A DNA stretch of 64,000 nucleotides from Eledone cirrhosa (lineage: Eukaryota), in assembly GCA_964016885.1 (NCBI GenBank), contig OZ024744.1, forward strand, positions 136,338,001 to 136,402,000, written 5' to 3'. The position numbers and the translations under genes are program-made. The notes beneath the pieces were generated by a model, which ran no database searches, was not told the DNA's origin, and saw only the letters and a list, made by a program, of their open reading frames with translations. This document shows positions 9,001-64,000 of the stretch, piece by piece. Position 1 is the stretch's first letter; each line of letters starts with the position of its first letter.

Positions 9001-12000
9001 TCTGAGAGAGATAGAATGTAGTGTGTGAGAGGGGAGACTGAGGTGGTATAGACATGTGATGAGTTGAGAGAGAAACTGTGACTGAGAGGGATAGAATGTG
9101 GTGTGCGAGAGAGGAGACTGAGGTGGTATGGACATGTGATGTGTTGAGAGAGAAACCGTGTCTGAGAGGGATAGAATGTAGTGTGCGAGAGAGGAGACTG
9201 AGGTGCTATGGACATGTGATGTGTCGAGAGAGAAACTGTGTCTGAGAGGGATATAATGTAGTGTGCGAGAGAGGAGACTGAGGTGGTATGGACATGTGAT
9301 GTGTTGAGAGAGAAACTGTGTCTGAGAGGGATATAATGTAGTGTGCGAGAGAGGAGACTGAGGTGGTATGGACATGTGATGTGTTGAGAGAGAAACTGTG
9401 TCTGAGAGGGATAGAATGTAGTGTGCGAGAGAGGAGACTGAGGTGGTATGGACATGTGATGAGTTGAGAGAGAAACTGTCTGAGAGGGATAGAATGTAGT
9501 GTGCGAGAGAGGAGACTGAGGTGGTATGGACATGTGATGTGTTGAGAGAGAAACTGTGTCTGAGAAGGATAGAATGTAGTGTGCGAGAGAGGAGACTGAG
9601 GTGGTATGGACATGTGATGACTTGAGAGAGAAACTGTCTGAGAGGGATAGAATGTAGTGTGCGAGAGGGGAGACTGAGGTAGTATAGACATGTGATGAAT
9701 TGAGAGAGAAACTGTGTCTGAGAGGGATAGAATGTAGTGTACGGGAGAGGAGACTGAGGTGGTATGAACATGTGATGAGTTGAGAGAGAAACTGTGTCTG
9801 AGAGGGATAGAATGTAGTGTGCGAGAGAGGAGACTGAGGTGGTATGGACATGTGATGAGTTGAGAGAGAAACTGTGTCTGAGAGAGATAGAATGTAGTGT
9901 GTGAGAGGAGAGACTGAGGTGGTATGGACATGTGATGAGTTGAGAGAGAAACTGTCTGAGAGGGATAGAATGTAGTGTGCGAGAGAGGAGACTGAGGTGG
10001 TATGGACATGTGAAGTGTTGAGAGAGAAACTGTGTCTGAGAGAGATAGAATGAAGTGTGCGAGAGAGGAGACAGGTGGTATGGACATGTGATGAGTTGAG
10101 AGAGAAACTGTGTCTGAGAGGGATAGAATGTAGTCTGTGAGAGAGGGGACTGAGGTGGTATGGACATGTGATGTGTTGAGAGAGAAACTGTGTCTGAGAG
10201 GGATATAATGTAGTGTGCGAGAGAGGAGACTGAGGTGGTATGGACATGTGATGTGTTGAGAGAGAAACTGTGTCTGAGAGGGATAGAATGTAGTGTGCGA
10301 GAGAGGAGACTGAGGTGGTATGGACATGTGATGAGTTGAGAGAGAAACTGTGTCTGAGAGGGATAGAATGTAGTGTAAGAGAGAGGAGACTGAGGTAGTA
10401 TGGACATGTGATGAGTTGAGAGAGAAACTGTGTCTGAGAGGGATAGAATGTAGTGTACGAGAGAGGAGACTGAGGTGGTATGTACATGTGATGAATTGAG
10501 AGAGAAACTGTGTCTGAGAGAGATAGAATGTAGTGTGCGAGAGAGGAGACTGAGGTGGTATGTACATGTGATGACTTGAGAGAGAAACTGTGTCTGAGAG
10601 AGATAGAATGTAGTGTACGAGAGAGGAGACTGAGGTGGTATGTACATGTGATGAATTGAGAGAGAAACTGTGTCTGAGAGAGATAGAATGTAGTGTGCGA
10701 GAGAGGAGACTGAGGTGGTATGGACATGTGATGTGTTGAGAGAGAAACTGTGTCTGAGAGGGATAGAATGTAGTGTACGGGAGAGGAGACAGGTGGTATG
10801 GACATGTGATGAGTTGAAAGAGAAACTGTGTCTGAGAGGGATAGAATGTAGTGTGCGAGAGAGGAGACTGAGGTGGTATGAACATGTGATGAGTTGAGAG
10901 AGAAACTGTGTCTGAGAGGGATAGAATGTAGTGTGCGAGAGAGGAGACGGAGGTGGTATGGACATGTGATGAGTTGAGAGAGAAACTGTGTCTGAGAGGG
11001 ATATAATGTAGTGTGCGAGAGAGGAGACTGAGGTGGTATGGACATGTGATGTGTTGAGAGAGAAACTGTGTCTGAGAGGGATAGAATGTAGTGTGCGAGA
11101 GAGGAGACTGAGGTGGTATGGACATGTGATGAGTTGAGAGAGAAACTGTCTGAGAGGGATAGAATGTAGTGTGCGAGAGAGGAGACTGAGGTGGTATGTA
11201 CATGTGATGACTTGAGAGAGAAACTGTGTCTGAGAGAGATAGAATGTAGTGTACGAGAGAGGAGACTGAGGTGGTATGTACATGTGATGAATTGAGAGAG
11301 AAACTGTGTCTGAGAGAGATAGAATGTAGTGTGCGAGAGAGGAGACTGAGGTGGTATGGACATGTGATGTGTTGAGAGAGAAACTGTGTCTGAGAGGGAT
11401 AGAATGTAGTGTACGGGAGAGGAGACAGGTGGTATGGACATGTGATGAGTTGAAAGAGAAACTGTGTCTGAGAGGGATAGAATGTAGTGTGCGAGAGAGG
11501 AGACTGAGGTGGTATGAACATGTGATGAGTTGAGAGAGAAACTGTGTCTGAGAGGGATAGAATGTAGTGTGCGAGAGAGGAGACGGAGGTGGTATGGACA
11601 TGTGATGAGTTGAGAGAGAAACTGTGTCTGAGAGGGATAGAATGTAGTGTACGGGAGAGGAGACAGGTGGTATGAACATGTGATGAGTTGAGAAACTGTG
11701 TCTGAGAGGGATAGAATGTAGTGTGCGAGAGAGGAGACTGAGGTGGTATGGACATGTGATGACTTGAGAGAGAAACTGTGTCTGAGAGAGATAGAATGTA
11801 GTGTGTGAGAGAGGAGACTGAGGTGGTATGGACATGTGATGTGTTGTGAGAGAAACTGTGTCTGAGAGAGATAGAATGTAGTGTGTGAGAGGGGAGACTG
11901 AGGTGGTATAGACATGTGATGAGTTGAGAGAGAAACTGTGACTGAGAGGGATAGAATGTGGTGTGCGAGAGAGGAGACTGAGGTGGTATGGACATGTGAT

Positions 12001-45200: not shown

Positions 45201-46327
45201 CGAGAGTGATAGAATGTAGTGTAAGAGAGAGGAGACTGAGGTGGTATGGACATGTGATGAGTTGAGAGAGAAACTGTGTCTGATAGGGATAGAATACAGT
45301 GTGCGAGAGGAGGAGACTGAGGTGGTATGGACATGTGATGTGTTGAGAGAGAAACTGTCTGAGAGGGATAGAATGTAGTGTGTGAGAGAAGAGACTGAGG
45401 TGGTATGGACATGTGATGTGTTGAGAGAGAAACTGTGTCTGAGAGGGATAGAATGTAGTGTGCGAGAGAGGAGACTGAGGTGGTATGTACATGTGATGAC
45501 TTGAGAGAGAAACTGTGTCTGAGAGAGATAGAATGTAGTGTACGAGAGAGGAGACTGAGGTGGTATGTACATGTGATGAATTGAGAGAGAAACTGTGTCT
45601 GAGAGAGATAGAATGTAGTGTGCGAGAGAGGAGACTGAGGTGGTATGGACATGTGATGTGTTGAGAGAGAAACTGTGTCTGAGAGGGATAGAATGTAGTG
45701 TACGGGAGAGGAGACAGGTGGTATGGACATGTGATGAGTTGAAAGAGAAACTGTGTCTGAGAGGGATAGAATGTAGTGTGCGAGAGAGGAGACTGAGGTG
45801 GTATGAACATGTGATGAGTTGAAAGAGAAACTGTGTCTGAGAGGGATAGAATGTAGTGTGTGAGAGAGGAGACAGGTGGTATGGACATGTGATGAGTTGA
45901 GAGAGAAACTCTGTCTGAGAGGGATAGAATGTAGTGTGCGAGAGAGGAGACTGAGGTGGTATGGACATGTGATGTGTTGAGAGAGAAACTGTGTCTGAGA
46001 GAGATAGAATGTAGTGTGTGAGAGGAGAGACTGAGGTGGTATGGACATGTGATGAGTTGAGAGAGAAACTGTCTGAGAGGGATAGAATGTAGTGTGCGAG
46101 AGGGGAGACTGAGGTAGTATAGACATGTGATGAATTGAGAGAGAAACTGTGTCTGAGAGGGATAGAATGTAGTGTACGGGAGAGGAGACTGAGGTGGTAT
46201 GAACATGTGATGAGTTGAGAGAGAAACTGTGTCTGAGAGGGATAGAATGTAGTGTGCGAGAGAGGAGACTGAGGTGGTATGGACATGTGATGAGTTGAGA
46301 GAGAAACTGTGTCTGAGAGAGATAGAA

Positions 46328-46831
46328 CTAGCTAGAAAAATGCGTACAGCAAAAAAAAGTAATATTGTTGGAACAAACCTTTAAAAATACAGGACAAGGA
46401 AGTAAGATAAACCTTTAAAAATACAGGACAAAGAACTAAGATAAAACTTTAAAAGAATAGGACAAGGAATATAAATTTTTACAATATATATATATATACG
46501 ATATAAAACAAATGGAAACTACATTTATAAAACCATATTTATTTCATTACATATATTTCAAGGATATCATATTAAAAATATGGTATGCCCTCTTCAGATA
46601 AAATATATGTAATGAAATAAATATGGTTTTATAAATGTAGTTTCCATTTGTTTTATATCGTATATATATATATATTGTAAAAATTTATATTCCTTGTCCT
46701 ATTCTTTTAAAGTTTTATCTTAGTTCTTTGTCCTGTATTTTTAAAGGTTTATCTTACTTCCTTGTCCTGTATTTTTAAAGGTTTGTTCCAACAATATTAC
46801 TTTTTTTTGCTGTACGCATTTTTCTAGCTAG
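46328..46831. repeat. Long inverted repeat (fold-back): 231-bp arms, 42-bp spacer
   Basis: 46328-46558 is the reverse complement of 46601-46831 (CTAGCTAGAAAAATGCGTACAGC...GCTGTACGCATTTTTCTAGCTAG). No mismatch or indel was seen by eye. The spacer is 46559-46600. Confidence 0.97.
46375..46470. repeat. ~34-bp tandem repeat x~2.7 within the fold-back arm
   Basis: AAACCTTTAAAAATACAGGACAAGGAAGTAAGAT repeated with decay and mirrored in the right arm at ~46689-46784. Confidence 0.85.
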
Positions 46832-47298
46832 TTTCCTATTTTTCAAGGCAATGCAAACAACAACTACTTAATTAAATAGTTATTACTTTAGTTACTTCTA
46901 TCAAAAAATCCCAAAAATGATGTTAATGAAAACTATAGGTGAAAGTGAAGCTATTCTTTTGTGACCTCTTAGTTACTTGTACCAATTTTGAATTTAATTC
47001 AAGCTACAGTGTCAGCCTGTGCATTGGAGTCACAGAAATAAGTTGAGATATTTTATCTAATTGGTACAAGCATCCACTCCACATGGCGGGGACATAGGTC
47101 AGATCGTGGAGCACTCACCTATCTTAAAAATATTAACTTATGATAAATAAGAGTCATTTAAGAAAATACAATTTTTTTAAATTAGTAGGTGAGCATTAAC
47201 AACTGAATCTAAATGGAGCAAATTTGCACCATTTGCATTTAGTTGAAAATAACATTTTAATTAAACATGACAAATTCTAATGCAATAGAAGGCAAATA

Positions 47299-47563
47299 TC
47301 AATTTTCACATGCAAATTTTTTTGGGATTTTTTTCACGCGCGCCATTTTTGGTCGATTTTTTGTCAATTTTTCACATGCAAATTTTTTTGGGTTTTTTTG
47401 ATTTTTTTTCACGCGCGCCATTTTTGTCGATTTTTTGTCAATTTTTCACATGATAATTTTTTTTTGGATTTTTGGATTTTCTTCACGCACGCCATTTTTG
47501 TCGATTTTTTGTCAATTTTTCACATGATAATTTTTTTTGGATTTTTGTATTTTCTTCACGCGC
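47299..47563. repeat. 65-74-bp T-rich minisatellite, ~3.7 copies
   Basis: Unit TCAATTTTTCACATG...TTCACGCGCGCCATTTTTGTCGATTTTTTG starts at 47299, 47364, 47438 and 47512. Length varies mostly in poly-T runs. Confidence 0.92.
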
Positions 47564-47971
47564 TTTTTGGTATGCATTATTCATATGTTTTGCTTGTTCT
47601 GATTGTCTTTTTTCTTTTATTTCAGCAGCTTTCCGTTTTTTATACTCCCTATTCCTAATGGCATTTTTTCTCCGTTTTTCATTCTCTTTATGAATTTTTT
47701 GATCTTTGGGACATTCGGAAGCACTATCAGTCTCATTGAATTCAAATTCAGGTCCAGGATTTAATTCAACACAACCGATAATAAGCAATGATAAGATCAG
47801 TGCACGTGTTCTATATTTCTGATTGGAAATCGGGTAAATTCGTTTATTGGATTTGTAAAAAGCCGCCTGAATGTGAATTTCATCATTCGAATTGCCCGAT
47901 TGTGGAATTGTTTCATTCGAAATGGAAATATTGCATTTTCGCGCCAGGCAAAAAAGTAATAAGCCGATCAA
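47483..47971 (-). pseudogene. Transposon-type ORF remnant with 2A-like motif followed by a K/R/E-rich segment
   Basis: The 162-codon frame contains RTRALILSLLIIGCVELNPGP (47812-47750), then KENEKRRKNAIRNREYKKRKAAEIKEKRQ. The start is TTG with no in-frame ATG before the motif (upstream stop at 48086-48088), and the frame ends inside the minisatellite. Confidence 0.55.
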
Positions 47972-48127
47972 AAAGCCGCGAAACGTATATGGTGACTTTT
48001 TTCGAAAGCCGCGAAACGTATGAAGTGACCTTTTGCGATTTTTTTGCGACCATTTTGGCGAGACTTTTGCAGGGAAACAAATTTTTCATTTGTAATAGTC
48101 AAAATAAATAAGCCGATAAAAAAGCCG
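47958..48127. repeat. Short direct repeats upstream of the ORF remnant
   Basis: AAAGCCGCGAAACGTAT occurs twice, 33 bp apart (47972, 48005). AATAAGCCGAT(C)AAAAAGCCG occurs at ~47958 and ~48107. Confidence 0.7.
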
Positions 48128-48469
48128 AGAGACGTCATTTTCATATGTCAAATGAGCACACTATTCGCACCTATCGCAAATGAGTTCACTACTCGCACCT
48201 ATCGGTACAAAAAATAGCACAACTATTCACAACTATTAGTACAAATCCAAATGATTTTCTGAATTTCTAGTATATCAATCAGCGACTGCTTTGAAAGAGA
48301 ACAATGCAGTGAGTGATTACTCATTTGAATATAAATAGAAGACAACCTCAACTAGTTTGCAACGTGTGACCACTTATCGCGAGATAGGAGAACATAATAG
48401 CTCCTAATTAGCTCAATGATTAATGTTTACTGCCACATTGTATCAACATTTAAAATTCAAATTCAAAAA

Positions 48470-49031
48470 AATAACCGCAGTCACTGGGGGGGGGGGTTCA
48501 AATAACCACCGCACCCCGAATAACCGCAGTCACTAGGGGGGGTTCGAATAAGACCCTCACCCCAAATAACAGCAGTCACTGGGGGAGGGTTCGAATAAGC
48601 GCCTCACCCCGAATAATCGCAGTCACTGTGGGGGGGGGGGTTCGAATAAGCGCCGCACCCCGAATAACCGCAGTCACTGTGGGGGGGGGGGGGGTTCGAA
48701 TAAGCGCCTCACCCCGAATAATCGCAGTCACTGGGGGAGGGTTCGAATAAGCGCCGCACCCCGAATAACCGCAGTCACTGGGGGGAGGGTTCGAATAAGC
48801 GCCGCACCCCGAATAATCGCAGTCACTGGGGGGAGGGTTCGAATAAGCGCCGCACCCCGAATAACCGCAGTCACTGGGGGGAGGGTTCGAATAAGCGCCG
48901 CACCCCGAATAATCGCAGTCACTGGGGGGAGGGTTCGAATAAGCGGGGGGGGGGGTTCGAATAAGCGTCTCACCCCGAATAATCGCAGTCACTGGGGGAG
49001 GGTTCGAATAAGCGCCGCACCCCGAATAACC
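48470..49031. repeat. GC-rich ~48-bp minisatellite, ~11 copies with variable poly-G tract
   Basis: Unit CAGTCACTGGGGGGAGGGTTCGAATAAGCGCCGCACCCCGAATAA(C/T)CG. CAGTCACT occurs at 48478, 48527, 48573, 48620, 48671, 48725, 48772, 48820, 48868, 48916 and 48986. Confidence 0.96.
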
Positions 49032-49067
49032 CCTTATCCTCCTCTGACCGGTCCCAAGAGATGCATC

Positions 49068-49342
49068 AAATGCACAGAGCGTCACCCTTACTCACTCACT
49101 TACTCACTTGAACACAGTTTTTTTCAGCAAACTTTGATCATAACTTTTTTTGTGCTGAACGAAATTTCGAGATTTTTAGCTTATATATAAGAGATGTGCA
49201 ATGATTTACTCTCCATGCTCATATAACTTTCATGTGATTTTGATAATCGGAAGACATTCTAATAATGCTGTAAAGAGACGATTGCCAACGAAATCACTAA
49301 GACAACAATATTATTACTAAACCGACTACCGTCGGTTTAGGA
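49068..49342. repeat. Terminal module, internal copy (275 bp)
   Basis: Near-identical to 49835-50100. It includes an (ACTC)-like microsatellite and ends with hairpin CTAAACCGAC-TACC-GTCGGTTTAG (49317-49340) + GA, followed by (TA)n. Confidence 0.95.
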
Positions 49343-49519
49343 TATATATATATATATATACAAATGAAAAAATTAATATGTTGCGTACATATCTAAAATC
49401 TAATTTGCAAACAAAATGTTCACTTGCATACTATATTGGATATATACCAGATGTAATCTCCGATTTATACAATTTAAGTATTTAAATCATATTTGCGTAC
49501 ATGCGTAATGAGTACGAAA

Positions 49520-49523
<4 letters not shown>

Positions 49524-49570
<47 letters not shown>
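49524..49570. repeat. (AT)n microsatellite, ~23 units
   Basis: Perfect AT run. A shorter run lies at 49342-49360. Confidence 0.97.
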
Positions 49571-49576
<6 letters not shown>

Positions 49577-49727
49577 CGTTCATACAAACATACAAGTATA
49601 ATCATATTTATGAAGGTTATATGCATTTATACATAGACATTATACATACTTATTTAATAATACCAACACCAGAACCAAACATTTCTTAATAAAACAACAA
49701 TAATCATTTATTTCTTGATATTTACAC

Positions 49728-49810
49728 GAAGAAGAAGAAGAAGAAGAAGAAAATGATGATGAGGGAGGGGGGGGGGAGAAAGAGGAACAAAACAAGTGGA
49801 GGAGGAGGGG
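49728..49810. repeat. (GAA)8 microsatellite and purine-rich low-complexity tract
   Basis: (GAA)8 at 49728-49751, then GAT/GGA/poly-G runs. Confidence 0.9.
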
Positions 49811-49834
49811 GATTATTGGAGTCGGAAGAAGAGA

Positions 49835-50100
49835 AAATGCACAGAGCGTCACCCTTACTCACTCACTTACTCACTTGAACACAGTTTTTTTCAGCAAACT
49901 TTGATCATAACTTTTTTTGTGCTGAACGAAATTTCGAGATTTTTAGCTTAAGAGATGTGCAATGATTTACTCTCCATGCTCATATAACTTTCATGTGATT
50001 TTGATAATCGGAAGACATTCTAATAATGCTGTAAAGAGACGATTGCCAACGAAATCACTAAGACAACAATATTACTAAACCGACTGCCGTCGGTTTAGGA
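49835..50100. repeat. Terminal module, outer copy (266 bp)
   Basis: It differs from the internal copy by a 6-bp indel (GCTT[ATATAT]AAG), a 3-bp indel in CAACAATATT[ATT]ACT and one loop base. It forms the element boundary. Confidence 0.95.
50075..50098. other. Terminal stem-loop (10-bp stem, 4-nt loop)
   Basis: CTAAACCGAC-TGCC-GTCGGTTTAG lies 2 bp from the element end. The stem is identical in both module copies while the loop differs. Confidence 0.9.
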
Positions 50101-53100
50101 TGTAGTGTGTGAGAGAGGAGACTGAGGTGGTATGGACATGTGATGTGTTGAGAGAGAAACTGTGTCTGAGAGAGATAGAATGTAGTGTGTGAGAGGAGAG
50201 ACTGAGGTGGTATGGACATGTGATGAGTTGAGAGAGAAACTGTCTGAGAGGGATAGAATGTAGTGTGCGAGAGAGGAGACTGAGGTGGTATGGACATGTG
50301 AAGTGTTGAGAGAGAAACTGTGTCTGAGAGAGATAGAATGAAGTGTGCGAGAGAGGAGACAGGTGGTATGGACATGTGATGAGTTGAGAGAGAAACTGTG
50401 TCTGAGAGGGATAGAATGTAGTCTGTGAGAGAGGGGACTGAGGTGGTATGGACATGTGATGTGTTGAGAGAGAAACTGTGTCTGAGAGGGATATAATGTA
50501 GTGTGCGAGAGAGGAGACTGAGGTGGTATGGACATGTGATGTGTTGAGAGAGAAACTGTGTCTGAGAGGGATAGAATGTAGTGTGCGAGAGAGGAGACTG
50601 AGGTGGTATGGACATGTGATGTGTTGAGAGAGAAACTGTGTCTGAGAGGGATGGAATGTAGTGTGCGAGAGAGGAGACTGAGGTGGTATGGACATGTGAT
50701 GAGTTGAGAGAGAAACTGTGTCTGAGAGGGATAGAATGTAGTGTAAGAGAGAGGAGACTGAGGTAGTATGGACATGTGATGAGTTGAGAGAGAAACTGTG
50801 TCTGAGAGGGATAGAATGTAGTGTGCGAGAGAGGAGACTGAGGTGGTATGGACATGTGATGTGTTGAGAGAGAAACTGTGTCTGAGAGGGATAGAATGTA
50901 GTGTGCGAGAGAGGAGACTGAGGTGGTATGGACATGTGATGAGTTGAGAGAGAAACTGTGTCTGAGAGGGATAGAATGTAGTGTAAGAGAGAGGAGACTG
51001 AGGTAGTATGGACATGTGATGAGTTGAGAGAGAAACTGTGTCTGAGAGGGATAGAATGTAGTGTGCGAGAGAGGAGACTGAGATGGTATGGACATGTGAT
51101 GTGTTGAGAGAGAAACTGTGTCTGAGAGGGATAGAATGTAGTGTGCGAGAGAGGAGACTGAGGTGGTATGGACATGTGATGACTTGAGAGAGAAACTGTC
51201 TGACAGGGATAGAATGTAGTGTGCGAGAGGGGAGACTGAGGTAGTATAGACATGTGATGAATTGAGAGAGAAACTGTGTCTGAGAGGGATAGAATGTAGT
51301 GTGCGAAAGAGGAGACTGAGGTGGTATGGACATGTGATGAGTTGAGAGAGAAACTGTGTCTGAGAGAGATAGAATGTAGTGTGTGAGAGAGGAGACTGAG
51401 GTGGTATGGACATGTGATGTGTTGAGAGAGAAACTGTGTCTGAGAGAGATAGAATGTAGTGTGTGAGAGGGGAGACTGAGGTGGTATGGACATGTGATGA
51501 GTTGAGAGAGAAACTGTCTGAGAGGGATAGAATGTAGTGTGCGAGAGAGGAGACTGAGGTGGTATGGACATGTGAAGTGTTGAGAGAGAAACTGTGTCTG
51601 AGAGTGATAGAATGTAGTGTAAGAGAGAGGAGACTGAGGTGGTATGGACATGTGATGAGTTGAGAGAGAAACTGTGTCTGAGAGGGATAGAATATAGTGT
51701 GCGAGAGGAGGAGACTGAGGTGGTATGGACATGTGATGTGTTGAGAGAGAAACTGTGTCCGAGAGTGATAGAATGTAGTGTAAGAGAGAGGAGACTGAGG
51801 TGGTATGGACATGTGATGAGTTGAGAGAGAAACTGTGTCTGATAGGGATAGAATATAGTGTGCGAGAGGAGGAGACTGAGGTGGTATGGACATGTGATGT
51901 GTTGAGAGAGAAACTGTCTGAGAGGGATAGAATGTAGTGTGTGAGAGAAGAGACTGAGGTGGTATGGACATGTGATGTGTTGAGAGAGAAACTGTGTCTG
52001 AGAGGGATAGAATGTAGTGTGCGAGAGAGGAGACTGAGGTGGTATGTACATGTGATGACTTGAGAGAGAAACTGTGTCTGAGAGAGATAGAATGTAGTGT
52101 ACGAGAGAGGAGACTGAGGTGGTATGTACATGTGATGAATTGAGAGAGAAACTGTGTCTGAGAGAGATAGAATGTAGTGTGCGAGAGAGGAGACTGAGGT
52201 GGTATGGACATGTGATGTGTTGAGAGAGAAACTGTGTCTGAGAGGGATAGAATGTAGTGTACGGGAGAGGAGACAGGTGGTATGGACATGTGATGAGTTG
52301 AAAGAGAAACTGTGTCTGAGAGGGATAGAATGTAGTGTGCGAGAGAGGAGACTGAGGTGGTATGAACATGTGATGAGTTGAAAGAGAAACTGTGTCTGAG
52401 AGGGATAGAATGTAGTGTGTGAGAGAGGAGACAGGTGGTATGGACATGTGATGAGTTGAGAGAGAAACTCTGTCTGAGAGGGATAGAATGTAGTGTGCGA
52501 GAGAGGAGACTGAGGTGGTATGAACATGTGATGAGTTGAAAGAGAAACTGTGTCTGAGAGGGATAGAATGTAGTGTGTGAGAGAGGAGACAGGTGGTATG
52601 GACATGTGATGAGTTGAGAGAGAAACTGTGTCTGAGAGGGATAGAATGTAGTGTGCGAGAGAGGAGACGGAGGTGGTATGGACATGTGATGAGTTGAGAG
52701 AGAAACTGTGTCTGAGAGGGATAGAATGTAGTGTACGGGAGAGGAGACAGGTGGTATGAACATGTGATGAGTTGAGAAACTGTGTCTGAGAGGGATAGAA
52801 TGTAGTGTAAGAGAGAGGAGACTGAGGTAGTATGGACATGTGATGAGTTGAGAGAGAAACTCTGTCTGAGAGGGATCGAATGTAGTGTGCGAGAGAGGAG
52901 ACTGAGGTGGTATGAACATGTGATGAGTTGAGAGAGAAACTGTGTCTGAGAGGGATAGAATGTAGTGTACGGGAGAGGAGACAGGTGGTATGAACATGTG
53001 ATGAGTTGAGAAACTGTGTCTGAGAGGGATAGAATGTAGTGTGCGAGAAAGGAGACTGAGGTGGTATGGACATGTGATGACTTGAGAGAGAAACTGTGTC

Positions 53101-56100
53101 TGAGAGAGATAGAATGTAGTGTGTGAGAGAGGAGACTGAGGTGGTATGGACATGTGATGTGTTGTGAGAGAAACTGTGTCTGAGAGAGATAGAATGTAGT
53201 GTGTGAGAGGGGAGACTGAGGTGGTATAGACATGTGATGAGTTGAGAGAGAAACTGTGACTGAGAGGGATAGAATGTGGTGTGCGAGAGAGGAGACTGAG
53301 GTGGTATGGACATGTGATGTGTTGAGAGAGAAACCGTGTCTGAGAGGGATAGAATGTAGTGTGCGAGAGAGGAGACTGAGGTGCTATGGACATGTGATGT
53401 GTCGAGAGAGAAACTGTGTCTGAGAGGGATATAATGTAGTGTGCGAGAGAGGAGACTGAGGTGGTATGGACATGTGATGTGTTGAGAGAGAAACTGTGTC
53501 TGAGAGGGATATAATGTAGTGTGCGAGAGAGGAGACTGAGGTGGTATGGACATGTGATGTGTTGAGAGAGAAACTGTGTCTGAGAGGGATAGAATGTAGT
53601 GTACGGGAGAGGAGACAGGTGGTATGAACATGTGATGAGTTGAGAGAGAAACTGTGTCTGAGAGGGATAGAATGTAGTGTGCGAGAGAGGAGACTGAGGT
53701 GGTATGGACATGTGATGAGTTGAGAGAGAAACTGTGTCTGAGAGAGATAGAATGTAGTGTGTGAGAGAGGAGACTGAGGTGGTATGGACATGTGATGTGT
53801 TGAGAGAGAAACTGTGTCTGAGAGAGATAGAATGTAGTGTGTGAGAGGAGAGACTGAGGTGGTATGGACATGTGATGAGTTGAGAGAGAAACTGTCTGAG
53901 AGGGATAGAATGTAGTGTGCGAGAGAGGAGACTGAGGTGGTATGGACATGTGAAGTGTTGAGAGAGAAACTGTGTCTGAGAGAGATAGAATGTAGTGTGT
54001 GAGAGAGGAGACTGAGGTGGTATGGACATGTGATGTGTTGAGAGAGAAACTGTGTCTGAGAGGGATAGAATGTAGTGTGCGAGAGAGGAGACTGAGGTGG
54101 TATGGACATGTGATGAGTTGAGAGAGAAACTGTGTCTGAGAGGGATAGAATGTAGTGTAAGAGAGAGGAGACTGAGGTAGTATGGACATGTGATGAGTTG
54201 AGAGAGAAACTGTGTCTGAGAGGGATAGAATGTAGTGTGCGAGAGAGGAGACTGAGGTGGTATGGACATGTGATGTGTTGAGAGAGAAACTGTGTCTGAG
54301 AGGGATAGAATGTAGTGTGCGAGAGAGGAGACTGAGGTGGTATGGACATGTGATGAGTTGAGAGAGAAACTGTGTCTGAGAGGGATAGAATGTAGTGTAA
54401 GAGAGAGGAGACTGAGGTAGTATGGACATGTGATGAGTTGAGAGAGAAACTGTGTCTGAGAGGGATAGAATGTAGTGTGCGGGAGAGGAGACTGAGGTGG
54501 TATGGACATGTGATGTGTTGAGAGAGAAACTGTGTCTGAGAGGGATAGAATGTAGTGTGCGAGAGAGGAGACTGAGGTGGTATGGACATGTGATGACTTG
54601 AGAGAGAAACTGTCTGACAGGGATAGAATGTAGTGTGCGAGAGGGGAGACTGAGGTAGTATAGACATGTGATGAATTGAGAGAGAAACTGTGTCTGAGAG
54701 GGATAGAATGTAGTGTGCGAAAGAGGAGACTGAGGTGGTATGGACATGTGATGAGTTGAGAGAGAAACTGTGTCTGAGAGAGATAGAATGTAGTGTGTGA
54801 GAGAGGAGACTGAGGTGGTATGGACATGTGATGTGTTGAGAGAGAAACTGTGTCTGAGAGAGATAGAATGTAGTGTACTTTGTGAGTGGGGAGACTGAGG
54901 TGGTATGGACATGTGATGAGTTGAGAGAGAAACTGTCTGAGAGGGATAGAATGTAGTGTGCGAGAGAGGAGACTGAGGTGGTATGGACATGTGAAGTGTT
55001 GAGAGAGAAACTGTGTCTGAGAGTGATAGAATGTAGTGTAAGAGAGAGGAGACTGAGGTGGTATGGACATGTGATGAGTTGAGAGAGAAACTGTGTCTGA
55101 GAGGGATAGAATATAGTGTGCGAGAGGAGGAGACTGAGGTGGTATGGACATGTGATGTGTTGAGAGAGAAACTGTGTCCGAGAGTGATAGAATGTAGTGT
55201 AAGAGAGAGGAGACTGAGGTGGTATGGACATGTGATGAGTTGAGAGAGAAACTGTGTCTGATAGGGATAGAATATAGTGTGCGAGAGGAGGAGACTGAGG
55301 TGGTATGGACATGTGATGTGTTGAGAGAGAAACTGTCTGAGAGGGATAGAATGTAGTGTGTGAGAGAAGAGACTGAGGTGGTATGGACATGTGATGTGTT
55401 GAGAGAGAAACTGTGTCTGAGAGGGATAGAATGTAGTGTGCGAGAGAGGAGACTGGTGGTATGGACATGTGATGAGTTGAGAGAGAAACTGTGTCTAAGA
55501 GGGATAGAATGTAGTGTGCGAGAGAGGAGACTGAGGTGGTATGTACATGTGATGACTTGAGAGAGAAACTGTCTGAGACGGATAGAATGTAGTGTGCGAG
55601 AGGGGAGACTGAGGTGGTATGGACATGTGATGAGTTGAGAGAGAAACTGTGTCTGAGATGGATAGAATGTAGTGTACGAGAGAGGAGACTGAGGTGGTAT
55701 GTACATGTGATGAATTGAGAGAGAAACTGTGTCTGAGAGAGATAGAATGTAGTGTGCGAGAGAGGAGACTGAGGTGGTATGGACATGTGATGTGTTGAGA
55801 GAGAAACTGTGTCTGAGAGGGATAGAATGTAGTGTACGGGAGAGGAGACAGGTGGTATGGACATGTGATGAGTTGAGAGAGAAACTGTGTCTGAGAGGGA
55901 TAGAATGTAGTGTGCGAGAGAGGAGACTGAGGTGGTATGGACATGTGATGAGTTGAGAGAGAAACTGTGTCTGAGAGAGATAGAATGTAGTGTGTGAGAG
56001 AGGAGACTGAGGTGGTATGGACATGTGATGTGTTGAGAGAGAAACTGTGTCTGAGAGAGATAGAATGTAGTGTGTGAGAGGAGAGACTGAGGTGGTATGG

Positions 56101-59100
56101 ACATGTGATGAGTTGAGAGAGAAACTGTCTGAGAGGGATAGAATGTAGTGTGCGAGAGAGGAGACTGAGGTGGTATGGACATGTGAAGTGTTGAGAGAGA
56201 AACTGTGTCTGAGAGAGATAGAATGTAGTGTGTGAGAGAGGAGACTGAGGTGGTATGGACATGTGATGTGTTGAGAGAGAAACTGTGTCTGAGAGGGATA
56301 GAATGTAGTGTGCGAGAGAGGAGACTGAGGTGGTATGGACATGTGATGAGTTGAGAGAGAAACTGTGTCTGAGAGGGATAGAATGTAGTGTAAGAGAGAG
56401 GAGACTGAGGTAGTATGGACATGTGATGAGTTGAGAGAGAAACTGTGTCTGAGAGGGATAGAATGTAGTGTGCGAGAGAGGAGACTGAGGTGGTATGGAC
56501 ATGTGATGTGTTGAGAGAGAAACTGTGTCTGAGAGGGATAGAATGTAGTGTGCGAGAGAGGAGACTGAGGTGGTATGGACATGTGATGAGTTGAGAGAGA
56601 AACTGTGTCTGAGAGGGATAGAATGTAGTGTAAGAGAGAGGAGACTGAGGTAGTATGGACATGTGATGAGTTGAGAGAGAAACTGTGTCTGAGAGGGATA
56701 GAATGTAGTGTGCGGGAGAGGAGACTGAGGTGGTATGGACATGTGATGTGTTGAGAGAGAAACTGTGTCTGAGAGGGATAGAATGTAGTGTGCGAGAGAG
56801 GAGACTGAGGTGGTATGGACATGTGATGACTTGAGAGAGAAACTGTCTGACAGGGATAGAATGTAGTGTGCGAGAGGGGAGACTGAGGTAGTATAGACAT
56901 GTGATGAATTGAGAGAGAAACTGTGTCTGAGAGGGATAGAATGTAGTGTGCGAAAGAGGAGACTGAGGTGGTATGGACATGTGATGAGTTGAGAGAGAAA
57001 CTGTGTCTGAGAGAGATAGAATGTAGTGTGTGAGAGAGGAGACTGAGGTGGTATGGACATGTGATGTGTTGAGAGAGAAACTGTGTCTGAGAGAGATAGA
57101 ATGTAGTGTACTTTGTGAGTGGGGAGACTGAGGTGGTATGGACATGTGATGAGTTGAGAGAGAAACTGTCTGAGAGGGATAGAATGTAGTGTGCGAGAGA
57201 GGAGACTGAGGTGGTATGGACATGTGAAGTGTTGAGAGAGAAACTGTGTCTGAGAGTGATAGAATGTAGTGTAAGAGAGAGGAGACTGAGGTGGTATGGA
57301 CATGTGATGAGTTGAGAGAGAAACTGTGTCTGAGAGGGATAGAATATAGTGTGCGAGAGGAGGAGACTGAGGTGGTATGGACATGTGATGTGTTGAGAGA
57401 GAAACTGTGTCCGAGAGTGATAGAATGTAGTGTAAGAGAGAGGAGACTGAGGTGGTATGGACATGTGATGAGTTGAGAGAGAAACTGTGTCTGATAGGGA
57501 TAGAATATAGTGTGCGAGAGGAGGAGACTGAGGTGGTATGGACATGTGATGTGTTGAGAGAGAAACTGTCTGAGAGGGATAGAATGTAGTGTGTGAGAGA
57601 AGAGACTGAGGTGGTATGGACATGTGATGTGTTGAGAGAGAAACTGTGTCTGAGAGGGATAGAATGTAGTGTGCGAGAGAGGAGACTGGTGGTATGGACA
57701 TGTGATGAGTTGAGAGAGAAACTGTGTCTAAGAGGGATAGAATGTAGTGTGCGAGAGAGGAGACTGAGGTGGTATGTACATGTGATGACTTGAGAGAGAA
57801 ACTGTCTGAGACGGATAGAATGTAGTGTGCGAGAGGGGAGACTGAGGTGGTATGGACATGTGATGAGTTGAGAGAGAAACTGTGTCTGAGATGGATAGAA
57901 TGTAGTGTACGAGAGAGGAGACTGAGGTGGTATGTACATGTGATGAATTGAGAGAGAAACTGTGTCTGAGAGAGATAGAATGTAGTGTGCGAGAGAGGAG
58001 ACTGAGGTGGTATGGACATGTGATGTGTTGAGAGAGAAACTGTGTCTGAGAGGGATAGAATGTAGTGTACGGGAGAGGAGACAGGTGGTATGGACATGTG
58101 ATGAGTTGAAAGAGAAACTGTGTCTGAGAGGGATAGAATGTAGTGTGCGAGAGAGGAGACTGAGGTGGTATGAACATGTGATGAGTTGAAAGAGAAACTG
58201 TGTCTGAGAGGGATAGAATGTAGTGTGTGAGAGAGGAGACAGGTGGTATGGACATGTGATGAGTTGAGAGAGAAACTGTGTCTGAGAGGGATAGAATGTA
58301 GTGTGCGAGAGAGGAGACTGAGGTGGTATGGACATGTGATGAGTTGAGAGAGAAACTGTGTCTGAGAGGGATAGAATGTAGTGTGCGAGAGAGGAGACGG
58401 AGGTGGTATGGACATGTGATGAGTTGAGAGAGAAACTGTGTCTGAGAGGGATAGAATGTAGTGTACGGGAGAGGAGACAGGTGGTATGAACATGTGATGA
58501 GTTGAGAAACTGTGTCTGAGAGGGATAGAATGTAGTGTGCGAGAGAGGAGACTGAGGTGGTATGGACATGTGATGACTTGAGAGAGAAACTGTGTCTGAG
58601 AGAGATAGAATGTAGTGTGTGAGAGAGGAGACTGAGGTGGTATGGACATGTGATGTGTTGTGAGAGAAACTGTGTCTGAGAGAGATAGAATGTAGTGTGT
58701 GAGAGGGGAGACTGAGGTGGTATAGACATGTGATGAGTTGAGAGAGAAACTGTGACTGAGAGGGATAGAATGTGGTGTGCGAGAGAGGAGACTGAGGTGG
58801 TATGGACATGTGATGTGTTGAGAGAGAAACCGTGTCTGAGAGGGATAGAATGTAGTGTGCGAGAGAGGAGACTGAGGTGCTATGGACATGTGATGTGTCG
58901 AGAGAGAAACTGTGTCTGAGAGGGATATAATGTAGTGTGCGAGAGAGGAGACTGAGGTGGTATGGACATGTGATGTGTTGAGAGAGAAACTGTGTCTGAG
59001 AGGGATAGAATGTAGTGTGCGAGAGAGGAAACTGAGGTGGTATGGACATGTGATGAGTTGAGAGAGAAACTGTCTGAGAGGGATAGAATGTAGTGTGCGA

Positions 59101-62100
59101 GAGAGGAGACTGAGGTGGTATGGACATGTGATGTGTTGAGAGAGAAACTGTGTCTGAGAGGGATAGAATGTAGTGTGCGAGAGAGGAGACTGAGGTGGTA
59201 TGGACATGTGATGACTTGAGAGAGAAACTGTGTCTGAGAGGGATAGAATGTAGTGTGCGAGAGAGGAAACTGAGGTGGTATGGACATGTGATGAGTTGAG
59301 AGAGAAACTGTCTGAGAGGGATAGAATGTAGTGTGCGAGAGAGGAGACTGAGGTGGTATGGACATGTGATGTGTTGAGAGAGAAACTGTGTCTGAGAGGG
59401 ATAGAATGTAGTGTGCGAGAGAGGAGACTGAGGTGGTATGGACATGTGATGACTTGAGAGAGAAACTGTCTGAGAGGGATAGAATGTAGTGTGCGAGAGG
59501 GGAGACTGAGGTAGTATAGACATGTGATGAATTGAGAGAGAAACTGTGTCTGAGAGGGATAGAATGTAGTGTACGGGAGAGGAGACAGGTGGTATGAACA
59601 TGTGATGAGTTGAGAGAGAAACTGTGTCTGAGAGGGATAGAATGTAGTGTGCGAGAGAGGAGACTGAGGTGGTATGGACATGTGATGAGTTGAGAGAGAA
59701 ACTGTGTCTGAGAGAGATAGAATGTAGTGTGTGAGAGAAGAGACTGAGGTGGTATGGACATGTGATGTGTTGAGAGAGAAACTGTGTCTGAGAGAGATAG
59801 AATGTAGTGTGTGAGAGGGGAGACTGAGGTGGTATGGACATGTGATGAGTTGAGAGAGAAACTGTCTGAGAGGGATAGAATGTAGTGTGCGAGAGAGGAG
59901 ACTGAGGTGGTATGGACATGTGAAGTGTTGAGAGAGAAACTGTGTCTGAGAGAGATAGAATGTAGTGTGTGAGAGAGGAGACTGAGGTGGTATGGACATG
60001 TGATGTGTTGTGAGAGAAACTGTGTCTGAGAGAGATAGAATGTAGTGTGTGAGAGGGGAGACTGAGGTGGTATAGACATGTGATGAGTTGAGAGAGAAAC
60101 TGTGACTGAGAGGGATAGAATGTGGTGTGCGAGAGAGGAGACTGAGGTGGTATGGACATGTGATGTGTTGAGAGAGAAACCGTGTCTGTGAGGGATAGAA
60201 TGTAGTGTGCGAGAGAGGAGACTGAGGTGCTATGGACATGTGATGTGTCGAGAGAGAGACTGTGTTTGAGAGGGATATAATGTAGTGTGCGAGAGAGGAG
60301 ACTGAGGTGGTATGGACATGTGATGTGTTGAGAGAGAAACTGTGTCTGAGAGGGATATAATGTAGTGTGCGAGAGAGGAGACTGAGGTGGTATGGACATG
60401 TGATGTGTTGAGAGAGAAACTGTGTCTGAGAGGGATAGAATGTAGTGTGCGAGAGAGGAGACTGAGGTGGTATGGACATGTGATGAGTTGAGAGAGAAAC
60501 TGTCTGAGAGGGATAGAATGTAGTGTGCGAGAGAGGAGACTGAGGTGGTATGGACATGTGATGTGTTGAGAGAGAAACTGTGTCTGAGAGGGATAGAATG
60601 TAGTGTGCGAGAGAGGAGACTGAGGTGGTATGGACATGTGATGACTTGAGAGAGAAACTGTCTGAGACGGATAGAATGTAGTGTGCGAGAGGGGAGACTG
60701 AGGTGGTATGGACATGTGATGAGTTGAGAGAGAAACTGTGTCTGAGATGGATAGAATGTAGTGTACGAGAGAGGAGACTGAGGTGGTATGTACATGTGAT
60801 GAATTGAGAGAGAAACTGTGTCTGAGAGAGATAGAATGTAGTGTGCGAGAGAGGAGACTGAGGTGGTATGGACATGTGATGTGTTGAGAGAGAAACTGTG
60901 TCTGAGAGGGATAGAATGTAGTGTACGGGAGAGGAGACAGGTGGTATGGACATGTGATGAGTTGAAAGAGAAACTGTGTCTGAGAGGGATAGAATGTAGT
61001 GTGCGAGAGAGGAGACTGAGGTGGTATGAACATGTGATGAGTTGAAAGAGAAACTGTGTCTGAGAGGGATAGAATGTAGTGTGTGAGAGAGGAGACAGGT
61101 GGTATGGACATGTGATGAGTTGAGAGAGAAACTGTGTCTGAGAGGGATAGAATGTAGTGTGCGAGAGAGGAGACTGAGGTGGTATGGACATGTGATGAGT
61201 TGAGAGAGAAACTGTGTCTGAGAGGGATAGAATGTAGTGTGCGAGAGAGGAGACGGAGGTGGTATGGACATGTGATGAGTTGAGAGAGAAACTGTGTCTG
61301 AGAGGGATAGAATGTAGTGTACGGGAGAGGAGACAGGTGGTATGAACATGTGATGAGTTGAGAAACTGTGTCTGAGAGGGATAGAATGTAGTGTGCGAGA
61401 GAGGAGACTGAGGTGGTATGGACATGTGATGACTTGAGAGAGAAACTGTGTCTGAGAGGGATATAATGTAGTGTGCGAGAGAGGAGACTGAGGTGGTATG
61501 GACATGTGATGTGTTGAGAGAGAAACTGTGTCTGAGAGGGATAGAATGTAGTGTGCGAGAGAGGAAACTGAGGTGGTATGGACATGTGATGAGTTGAGAG
61601 AGAAACTGTCTGAGAGGGATAGAATGTAGTGTGCGAGAGAGGAGACTGAGGTGGTATGGACATGTGATGTGTTGAGAGAGAAACTGTGTCTGAGAGGGAT
61701 AGAATGTAGTGTGCGAGAGAGGAGACTGAGGTGGTATGGACATGTGATGACTTGAGAGAGAAACTGTGTCTGAGAGGGATAGAATGTAGTGTGCGAGAGA
61801 GGAAACTGAGGTGGTATGGACATGTGATGAGTTGAGAGAGAAACTGTCTGAGAGGGATAGAATGTAGTGTGCGAGAGAGGAGACTGAGGTGGTATGGACA
61901 TGTGATGTGTTGAGAGAGAAACTGTGTCTGAGAGGGATAGAATGTAGTGTGCGAGAGAGGAGACTGAGGTGGTATGGACATGTGATGACTTGAGAGAGAA
62001 ACTGTCTGAGAGGGATAGAATGTAGTGTGCGAGAGGGGAGACTGAGGTAGTATAGACATGTGATGAATTGAGAGAGAAACTGTGTCTGAGAGGGATAGAA

Positions 62101-64000
62101 TGTAGTGTACGGGAGAGGAGACAGGTGGTATGAACATGTGATGAGTTGAGAGAGAAACTGTGTCTGAGAGGGATAGAATGTAGTGTGCGAGAGAGGAGAC
62201 TGAGGTGGTATGGACATGTGATGAGTTGAGAGAGAAACTGTGTCTGAGAGAGATAGAATGTAGTGTGTGAGAGAAGAGACTGAGGTGGTATGGACATGTG
62301 ATGTGTTGAGAGAGAAACTGTGTCTGAGAGAGATAGAATGTAGTGTGTGAGAGGGGTGACTGAGGTGGTATGGACATGTGATGAGTTGAGAGAGAAACTG
62401 TCTGAGAGGGATAGAATGTAGTGTGCGAGAGAGGAGACTGAGGTGGTATGGACATGTGAAGTGTTGAGAGAGAAACTGTGTCTGAGAGAGATAGAATGTA
62501 GTGTGTGAGAGAGGAGACTGAGGTGGTATGGACATGTGATGTGTTGTGAGAGAAACTGTGTCTGAGAGAGATAGAATGTAGTGTGTGAGAGGGGAGACTG
62601 AGGTGGTATAGACATGTGATGAGTTGAGAGAGAAACTGTGACTGAGAGGGATAGAATGTGGTGTGCGAGAGAGGAGACTGAGGTGGTATGGACATGTGAT
62701 GTGTTGAGAGAGAAACCGTGTCTGTGAGGGATAGAATGTAGTGTGCGAGAGAGGAGACTGAGGTGCTATGGACATGTGATGTGTCGAGAGAGAGACTGTG
62801 TTTGAGAGGGATATAATGTAGTGTGCGAGAGAGGAGACTGAGGTGGTATGGACATGTGATGTGTTGAGAGAGAAACTGTGTCTGAGAGGGATATAATGTA
62901 GTGTGCGAGAGAGGAGACTGAGGTGGTATGGACATGTGATGTGTTGAGAGAGAAACTGTGTCTGAGAGGGATAGAATGTAGTGTGCGAGAGAGGAGACTG
63001 AGGTGGTATGGACATGTGATGAGTTGAGAGAGAAACTGTCTGAGAGGGATAGAATGTAGTGTGCGAGAGAGGAGACTGAGGTGGTATGGACATGTGATGT
63101 GTTGAGAGAGAAACTGTGTCTGAGAGGGATAGAATGTAGTGTGCGAGAGAGGAGACTGAGGTGGTATGGACATGTGATGACTTGAGAGAGAAACTGTCTG
63201 AGAGGGATAGAATGTAGTGTGCGAGAGGGGAGACTGAGGTAGTATAGACATGTGATGAATTGAGAGAGAAACTGTGTCTGAGAGGGATAGAATGTAGTGT
63301 ACGGGAGAGGAGACAGGTGGTATGAACATGTGATGAGTTGAGAGAGAAACTGTGTCTGAGAGGGATAGAATGTAGTGTGCGAGAGAGGAGACTGAGGTGG
63401 TATGGACATGTGATGAGTTGAGAGAGAAACTGTGTCTGAGAGAGATAGAATGTAGTGTGTGAGAGAGGAGACTGAGGTGGTATGGACATGTGATGTGTTG
63501 AGAGAGAAACTGTGTCTGAGAGGGATAGAATGTAGTGTGTGAGAGAAGAGACTGAGGTGGTATGGACATGTGATGTGTTGAGAGAGAAACTGTGTCTGAG
63601 AGAGATAGAATGTAGTGTGTGAGAGGGGAGACTGAGGTGGTATGGACATGTGATGAGTTGAGAGAGAAACTGTCTGAGAGGGATAGAATGTAGTGTGCGA
63701 GAGAGGAGACTGAGGTGGTATGGACATGTGAAGTGTTGAGAGAGAAACTGTGTCTGAGAGAGATAGAATGTAGTGTGTGAGAGAGGAGACTGAGGTGGTA
63801 TAGACATGTGATGAGTTGAGAGAGAAACTGTGACTGAGAGGGATAGAATGTGGTGTGCGAGAGAGGAGACTGAGGTGGTATGGACATGTGATGTGTTGAG
63901 AGAGAAACCGTGTCTGTGAGGGATAGAATGTAGTGTGCGAGAGAGGAGACTGAGGTGCTATGGACATGTGATGTGTCGAGAGAGAGACTGTGTCTGAGAG
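50101..64000. repeat. 80-bp satellite DNA array (right block, ~175 monomers)
   Basis: Same monomer and orientation. It resumes at TGTAGT, exactly completing the GATAGAA|TGTAGT monomer broken at 46327, and runs off the window end. Confidence 0.99.
53650..58100. repeat. 2,233-bp higher-order duplication
   Basis: Private variants GTACTTTGTGAGTGGGG (~54875/57108), TCTAAGA (55495/57728) and GACTGGTGG recur at offset 2233. Boundaries are approximate. Confidence 0.85.

Follow-up and report, generated by a model that had tools for sequence, protein, structure and literature searches.

Natural 2A (StopGo) peptides occur in RNA viruses, non-LTR retrotransposons, and a few cellular genes, and Helitrons take up gene fragments. 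In the passages of PMC12846837 on viral 2A cores, the core was widened to (D/G/C/N)(V/I)ExNPGP; cysteine was present in 85 of 2,465 viral octapeptides, and a natural p12=C variant had a skipping activity of over 95%. For non-LTR retrotransposons (L1Tc/Ingi, CR1, L2, and Crack ORF2; LINE ORF1p), the relevant parts of PMC3708506 and PMC13405545 describe an N-terminal leader ending in a 2A-like peptide, and in the latter at least three leucines at positions -19 to -10 accompany activity and lowered protein. Among the rolling-circle elements, Helitron1 (HLE1) has 5' TC and 3' CTRR termini, inserts between A and T without duplication, and carries a 16-20-nt hairpin about 11 nt from the 3' end. Elements of the Helitron2-reverse (FoHeli3-5) type have 12-16-bp inverted repeats near both ends, with autonomous partners that encode an HLE2-clade RepHel and DUF6570. 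By the criteria given in PMC4067079, canonical Helitron2/Helentron (HINE) elements use a TT target, and 2-4 nt lie between their end and the left repeat.

The window, namely, the whole stretch of 64,000 nucleotides analysed here, was found to consist of an 80-bp satellite array (356 of the 523 split units were exactly 80 bp) with a single large gap, into which 3,773 bp of other DNA was inserted. The features of this locus are as follows.

1 to 46327, no strand: 80-bp satellite array, left flank (repeat analysis)
46326 to 46833, no strand: perfect 233-bp inverted repeat, which doubles the 3' end region and includes 34-bp repeats (repeat analysis)
46328 to 50100, minus strand: Helitron-like insertion, non-autonomous, without Rep/helicase (junctions, loose ends of reads)
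46358 to 46370, no strand: 3' copy of the 13-bp subterminal inverted repeat, 30 nt from the CTAG end (shuffle test)
47319 to 47563, no strand: 74-bp tandem repeats, in which the ORF enters and ends (repeat analysis)
47483 to 48144, minus strand: ORF of 220 codons from the ATG at 48144 in the majority of copies; in the window, one missing T in the run 48039-48045 interrupts it
47564 to 47752, minus strand: highly charged segment behind the skip site (composition; third-position synonymous changes in a relative)
47750 to 47812, minus strand: 2A/StopGo-like peptide RTRALILSLLIIGCVELNPG/P (translation, motif scan)
48470 to 49014, no strand: 48-bp minisatellite upstream of the ORF (repeat analysis)
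49068 to 49342, minus strand: inner second copy of the 5' end, A/TC plus hairpin, adjoining a TA run; 49835-50100 is almost the same sequence
50064 to 50076, no strand: 5' copy of the 13-bp subterminal inverted repeat (shuffle test)
50075 to 50098, minus strand: 5' hairpin with a 10-bp stem and a 4-nt loop, immediately behind the terminal TC (folding)
50101 to 64000, no strand: 80-bp satellite array, right flank (repeat analysis)

The insertion split one satellite unit with neither duplication nor loss of the target site: it lay within the satellite word GATAGAA/TGTAG and read, on the minus strand, A/TC...CTAG/T, and the uninterrupted junction GATAGAATGTAG occurred 636 times elsewhere in the array. 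Four sequencing runs were aligned to the insert: contigs of organism A (X2), organism B (X5), and organism C (X6), and raw reads (X10). Loose ends of reads connected position 46327 with satellite, corresponding to the empty junction, and the match of an organism C contig to the insert stopped at 50101, so the TC boundary was visible under a second organism label too. The satellite itself translated to ...LREKLCLRGIECSVRERRLRWYGHVM, which we take to resemble the motif found at the C-terminus of RTE-type LINE proteins; because of this likeness, the array was probably derived from LINE coding DNA. The loose ends of satellite reads from organisms A-C ran on as open coding-like sequence. In a local search, the satellite translation had only one weak match (L074, E 0.058), and Pfam had none. 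Rfam yielded no match either.

The insert shared with Helitron1 the 5' TC, the 3' CTAG, and the A/T insertion site without target duplication, with the caveat that deep relatives alter CTAGCTAG. On the other hand, it differed in having subterminal inverted repeats, which are missing from HLE1, and in the absence of a significant hairpin at the 3' end, including the position about 11 nt from it (z 0.02; 88 of 200 shuffles folded equally well). The hairpin at the 5' end was significant: -10.2 kcal/mol and a z value of -5.48, reached by none of 200 shuffles. The length of the 13-bp inverted repeat, which was within the range for Helitron2-reverse elements, was reached in 0 of 5000 shuffles; its copies were 24 and 30 nt distant from the element ends and the target was A/T, in disagreement with canonical Helitron2/Helentron. 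The 13-bp inverted repeats and 5' hairpin, in the absence of a 3' hairpin, gave the element the appearance of a reversed Helitron2, and a Helitron2-reverse-like element accounted for its ends better than canonical Helitron1 did. Both ends and target agreed with FoHeli3-5/'HLE2-reverse' and proto-Helentron as far as these are characterized in sections of PMC5148889, PMC11417382, and PMC4067079. Those elements are fungal and oomycete, whereas the one in the window, apparently from an animal, begins with TCCT, has no RepHel by which it may be classified, and contains a 2A. None of the 142 loci fetched contained the terminal hairpin of this element.

Both ends of the element were doubled. The two copies of the 5' end (49068-49342 and 49835-50100) were separated by about 490 nt rich in TA and GAA, and this arrangement resembled FoHeli and HelenXT233, whose 5' termini are multiple. 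At the 3' side, the 13-bp repeat was present a third time, at 46789, inside the 233-bp inverted repeat (46326-46833). This inverted repeat had a 42-nt loop, and its centre (about 46500-46650) was TA-flanked with a depth of about 880,000 in the organism A run; this centre may be a palindromic MITE in its own right, from which a fold-back duplication was seeded. Deep relatives not only changed CTAGCTAG, but at the inner arm also continued beyond CTAG to about 46866. The outer CTAG may therefore be where a fold-back copy ended rather than the usual terminus of the family.

The earlier note, made from the sequence alone, had placed the motif RTRALILSLLIIGCVELNPGP at 47750-47812 in the orientation of the TC...CTAG reading; both the exact position (47812-47750, minus strand) and the orientation shared with the TC...CTAG ends were borne out. 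The octapeptide CVELNPGP conformed to the core (D/G/C/N)(V/I)ExNPG/P, and was preceded by a hydrophobic stretch, TRALILSLLII, with four leucines at -19 to -10, the region specified in PMC13405545, at least in its treatment of leucine content. A VExNPGP-coding match was unique in the window and did not appear in 100 shuffles. Although C in place of D had been regarded as a departure from the consensus, and the substitution is indeed present, it is not a defect because the core published in the pertinent part of PMC12846837 admits C and natural C variants skip. The core, the G at p11, and the leucine-rich hydrophobic stretch upstream were all shared with the RNA-virus 2A/StopGo peptides treated there; the peptide in the window differs in being a putative 2A within a DNA element of a eukaryotic genome. 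Compared with the non-LTR 2A-like peptides, it had Helitron-like flanking ends, no APE, RT, PHD, or esterase after it, and a longer leader, unlike the MGxSxEQWRA type of LINE leaders. The highly charged stretch that had been noticed after the motif was confirmed: the 62 residues from the final P contained 27% K/R, 19% D/E, and 10% LIVMF.

Among the supplement rows of PMC13405545, the skipping classes include WLKVITALLIIRCIELNPGP and four of five GGVELNPGP peptides, and a tested skipper, LIRVIAILLIIGGVELNPGP, was identical to the window's peptide at 13 of 20 positions by an eye count. On the other hand, LIRVIAILLIIGDVELNPGP is listed there as non-skipping, RPCFVYLLLVRACIERNPGP as fall-off, and some near neighbours as non-skipping; these Sort-Seq classes are model-assigned, as described in the paper. 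Furthermore, changes of D12 in P2A and F2A lead to a loss of activity and context counts, according to a part of bioRxiv 2026.09.24.754024. The 2A of the window is likely functional, and in our judgement skipping or fall-off, if the frame is translated, is quite probable.

The frame containing the motif had been given as 162 amino acids without an in-frame ATG. It was present, but longer: stop to stop, it extended from 48085 to 47483, corresponding to 200 codons. The lack of an ATG was correct for the window's own letters but not for most copies, in which an extra T behind position 48038 (the T7 run 48039-48045) restores one. This T was carried by contigs of organisms A, B, and C (290.5 of 290.5, 2.6 of 5.3, and 2.3 of 2.3 depth, respectively) and by 12 of 14 raw reads, the remaining two reads being without it. 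With the majority T, an ATG at 48144 or 48138 joins the 2A frame to give a translatable ORF of 220 codons, in which the final P is residue 132 and the skip site lies between residues 131 and 132; the shorter run of the window, which breaks this frame, is either an assembly error or a copy-specific deletion. The frame from the ATG at 48089 (MKNLFPCK), previously considered as a frameshifted 5' part, did not hold up, stopping after 40 codons when the extra T was added. The start of the restored ORF (48144-48088, minus strand) encoded a hydrophobic stretch, MKMTSLGFFIGLFIL..., which overlapped a 35-bp internal duplication and could be a signal-like sequence. At the other end, the 74-bp repeats (47319-47563) translated to similar charged 24-residue units with shifting frames, and may be degenerate coding repeats or merely A-rich non-coding repeats.

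In a diverged relative from organism B, all six in-frame differences among the 40 of 195 difference rows listed were at synonymous third positions, for which the chance is about 0.001 at 1/3 each. The depth of the organism B relatives was about 139 over 47560-47690 and 473 over 47691-47821, with 0-9 in most bins elsewhere inside the insert and up to 123 at 49132-49262. At a loose end of organism B (47731), the frame, read by eye, stayed open past NPGP-EFEFNE. In addition, a 727-nt contig of organism A (depth 77.6) matched 47562-47683 with 16 differences, while its other 605 nt were unlike the window. The depths of these relatives, which are not copy numbers, point to a multi-copy coding family. 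The internal contigs of the element had depths of 216-301, and the end regions, common with relatives, about 5,000-10,000. Since most copies have an in-frame ATG and the relative differs synonymously, the frame looks like real coding sequence. Near-identical pieces of the element with depths of 2-4 were also found in organism B beside the diverged relatives (139-473), for which contamination, close kinship, and recent transfer are alternatives.

Homologs of the frame were searched for in several collections. A word-index protein search gave nothing (0 of 137 candidates; a weak negative), whereas phmmer gave three matches, among which one was credible: P0003 (E 5.5e-7), containing a close 2A twice, followed by an Ulp1 protease (the Atlas search with P0003 gave Ulp1 only). 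P0003 is a eukaryote-like protein, in which a 158-aa block bearing the 2A is tandemly duplicated ahead of Ulp1. The other two matches, P0002 (HYR repeats) and P0004 (bacterial), were put down to repeats or chance and set aside. The 2A region of P0003 found nothing among long proteins in the word-index search (a weak negative). There was no significant Pfam match for the 2A or MKNLF frame, no usable match in the Atlas search with the frame, and no relative of the frame among viral contigs. Among viral contigs, a stricter Rep pattern matched nothing, and a looser one matched 35 loci, including a full RepHel (L129) and a shorter RepHel-like ORF (L139).

A metagenome scan was performed with the pattern L-x-I-G-[G/C]-[V/I/M]-E-L-N-P-G-P, the core position of which was limited to G/C/W, and 105 loci were obtained from 22 of the 64 parts of the collection: 58 of the C type and 47 of the G type. 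The G-type loci were mostly one family, and in 18 Pfam detected the PHD and/or esterase domains of LINE ORF1. The C-type loci (among L003-L107) were one multi-copy repeat family with a leader, MGDSIEQWRATIGQW, followed by IGCVELNPGP and a short downstream frame. They were flanked by long minisatellites (97, 47, and 96 bp), and no Helitron ends could be fixed when this family was inspected. No Helitron domain was found in the 70 ORFs beside the 105 loci. Two loci (L004:3414-6011 and L093:148-633, both plus strand) encoded a leader, a 2A, and a zinc-finger-like region (866 aa, without a Pfam match), presumably a DNA transposase, which suggests 2A use in DNA transposons. At another (L043:199-2519, minus strand), leader, 2A, and C2H2 were followed by a 589-aa protein in another frame, which had no significant Pfam or PDB match and which we take to resemble the N-terminal part of Polinton/Maverick DNA polymerases.

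No 2A was found in 120 RepHel proteins, which were mostly Helitron1 by the Pfam lists and among which many gene calls may miss N-termini, or in the three Helitron2 loci with upstream DNA, seven of the ten fetched loci ending before the N-terminus; 2A is thus no general Helitron feature. The low-complexity charged segment had no significant similarity to the same 120 RepHel proteins or 10 Helitron2 loci. In the animal-type Helitron2 proteins L146, L148, L149, and L152, the Rep region was preceded by charged repeats, and DUF6570 was present in L145, L146, L149, and L152. These ten loci (L143-L152) are eukaryote-type Helitron2 transposases on contigs labelled as bacterial MAGs, probably through host contamination of the MAG bins.

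A 2A/StopGo-type peptide within a Helitron-like element, as read in the earlier note, was supported. For its proposed parentage, the N-terminus of a rolling-circle transposase, no relative running into Rep/PIF1 or APE/RT was found. As the best explanation, we consider that the frame (leader, 2A, and charged helix-like segment) may be the kept 5' part of the Rep/helicase polyprotein of the parent element, for which our confidence is evenly balanced. The parent rolling-circle element would have had one long ORF, on which the ribosome would stall at GCVELNPG; skipping at Gly-Pro would free the 131-residue leader and a downstream product beginning with Pro. This would separate the transposase and probably damp its amount, as expected from the four leucines at -19 to -10 and the leucine data in PMC13405545. 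An internal deletion may then have removed the remaining transposase to leave a 3.8-kb passenger, which would have been mobilised in trans and inserted at AT in the satellite; its ends are those observed above. In favor of this origin, the frame is oriented from the 5' to the 3' end and starts some 1.2 kb inward of the inner 5' end, and the charged segment may be likened to the charged repeats opening several Helitron2 proteins, without significant similarity. A possible parallel, drawn from one supplement row of PMC13405545, is the coral protein XP_044182051.1, which has a leader, a 2A, and later charged repeats, with a top structural match named PIF1 helicase. A tegument-like DUB lies between the 2A and the repeats, and such DUBs occur mostly in Helentron ORFs, as stated in a part of PMC9741609; that row bears no Helitron label from the authors, and classes this 2A as 'falloff only'. 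The coral class, the inactivating D12 substitutions in viral 2As, and the absence of a Rep/helicase homolog and of 2A from the RepHel and Helitron2 sets count against the native origin.

A real, if rather less than even, possibility is that the frame was captured: the UTR, leader, 2A, and following helix would be the 5' part of a gene from some other mobile element, such as a LINE ORF1 or another DNA transposon, taken up by the Helitron-like element, the 2A being genuine but unrelated to the rolling-circle transposase. Such uptake is an established habit of Helitrons, and leader-plus-2A N-termini were frequent in LINE ORF1 (the 47 G-type loci), with no counterpart in the 120 RepHel proteins or the three Helitron2 N-termini. 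The 2A also precedes other domains, namely, Ulp1 in P0003 and zinc-finger proteins in L004, L043, and L093, and a coiled coil in L1-like ORF1p, in the account of PMC13405545. However, PHD, C2H2, esterase, and APE were all absent behind the 2A by Pfam, as were coiled coil and RRM (only 88 residues follow, which is compatible with a truncated capture); the charged segment, with 46% charged residues and 10% LIVMF, does not appear to be a coiled coil of heptads, no match to the MGxSxEQWRA leader profile of LINEs was found in the window, and the frame occupies the place and 5'-end orientation expected of a native ORF. It is unlikely that the peptide is a decayed or inactive relic, or one causing no more than fall-off or lowered protein output, in a copy that is dead and untranscribed, so that its origin would have no bearing on any present function. 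The window's copy has no transposase, lies in satellite DNA, and is frameshifted in its own letters, and the close tested peptides include the non-skipping and fall-off sequences above; yet most copies keep the frame open, the assays reported in PMC12846837 show activity for C variants, and a further repeat family, unrelated to this one, has the same C-type core (58 of the 105 loci, one lineage, under a pattern allowing G/C/W only). A chance motif in non-coding repeat DNA is exceedingly improbable: a bare NPGP arose in 47 of 1000 Markov resamples of the insert, but [VI]ExNPGP in none, and the correct hydrophobic stretch upstream, the protein relative P0003, the in-frame ATG, and the synonymous differences refute it. 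Returning to the native origin, we propose tentatively, at a little under even confidence, an animal rolling-circle lineage with reversed-Helitron2 ends in which StopGo ahead of Rep/helicase trims the leader and throttles the transposase.

No literature linking 2A with Helitrons was found in the accessible sources; prior mention is possible in subscription papers, theses, Repbase notes, and bioRxiv supplements, which were outside reach. Nothing relevant, by title, was among the matches listed for DNA transposons and 2A-like peptides, and the word 'helitron' was absent from the supplements of PMC12338488 and PMC13405545 and the main texts of PMC3708506, PMC12338488, and the bioRxiv version of PMC13405545. 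Thus, 2A peptides, C cores, and reversed-Helitron2 ends are known singly, and their combination was not found in print.

If captured, the frame would be a tidy instance of gene capture by a Helitron, though not an unusual one, and under either origin the locus adds a likely animal example of reversed-Helitron2 ends together with a natural C-core peptide. If a rolling-circle transposon does use a 2A before its transposase, StopGo would be a common device by which unrelated selfish elements restrict or divide their proteins. Helitrons would then be natural users of 2A that have gone unrecognised, as would DNA transposons generally if the cases with Ulp1, zinc fingers, or a tegument DUB are counted, and Helitrons would provide a system for testing the purpose of cellular 2As.
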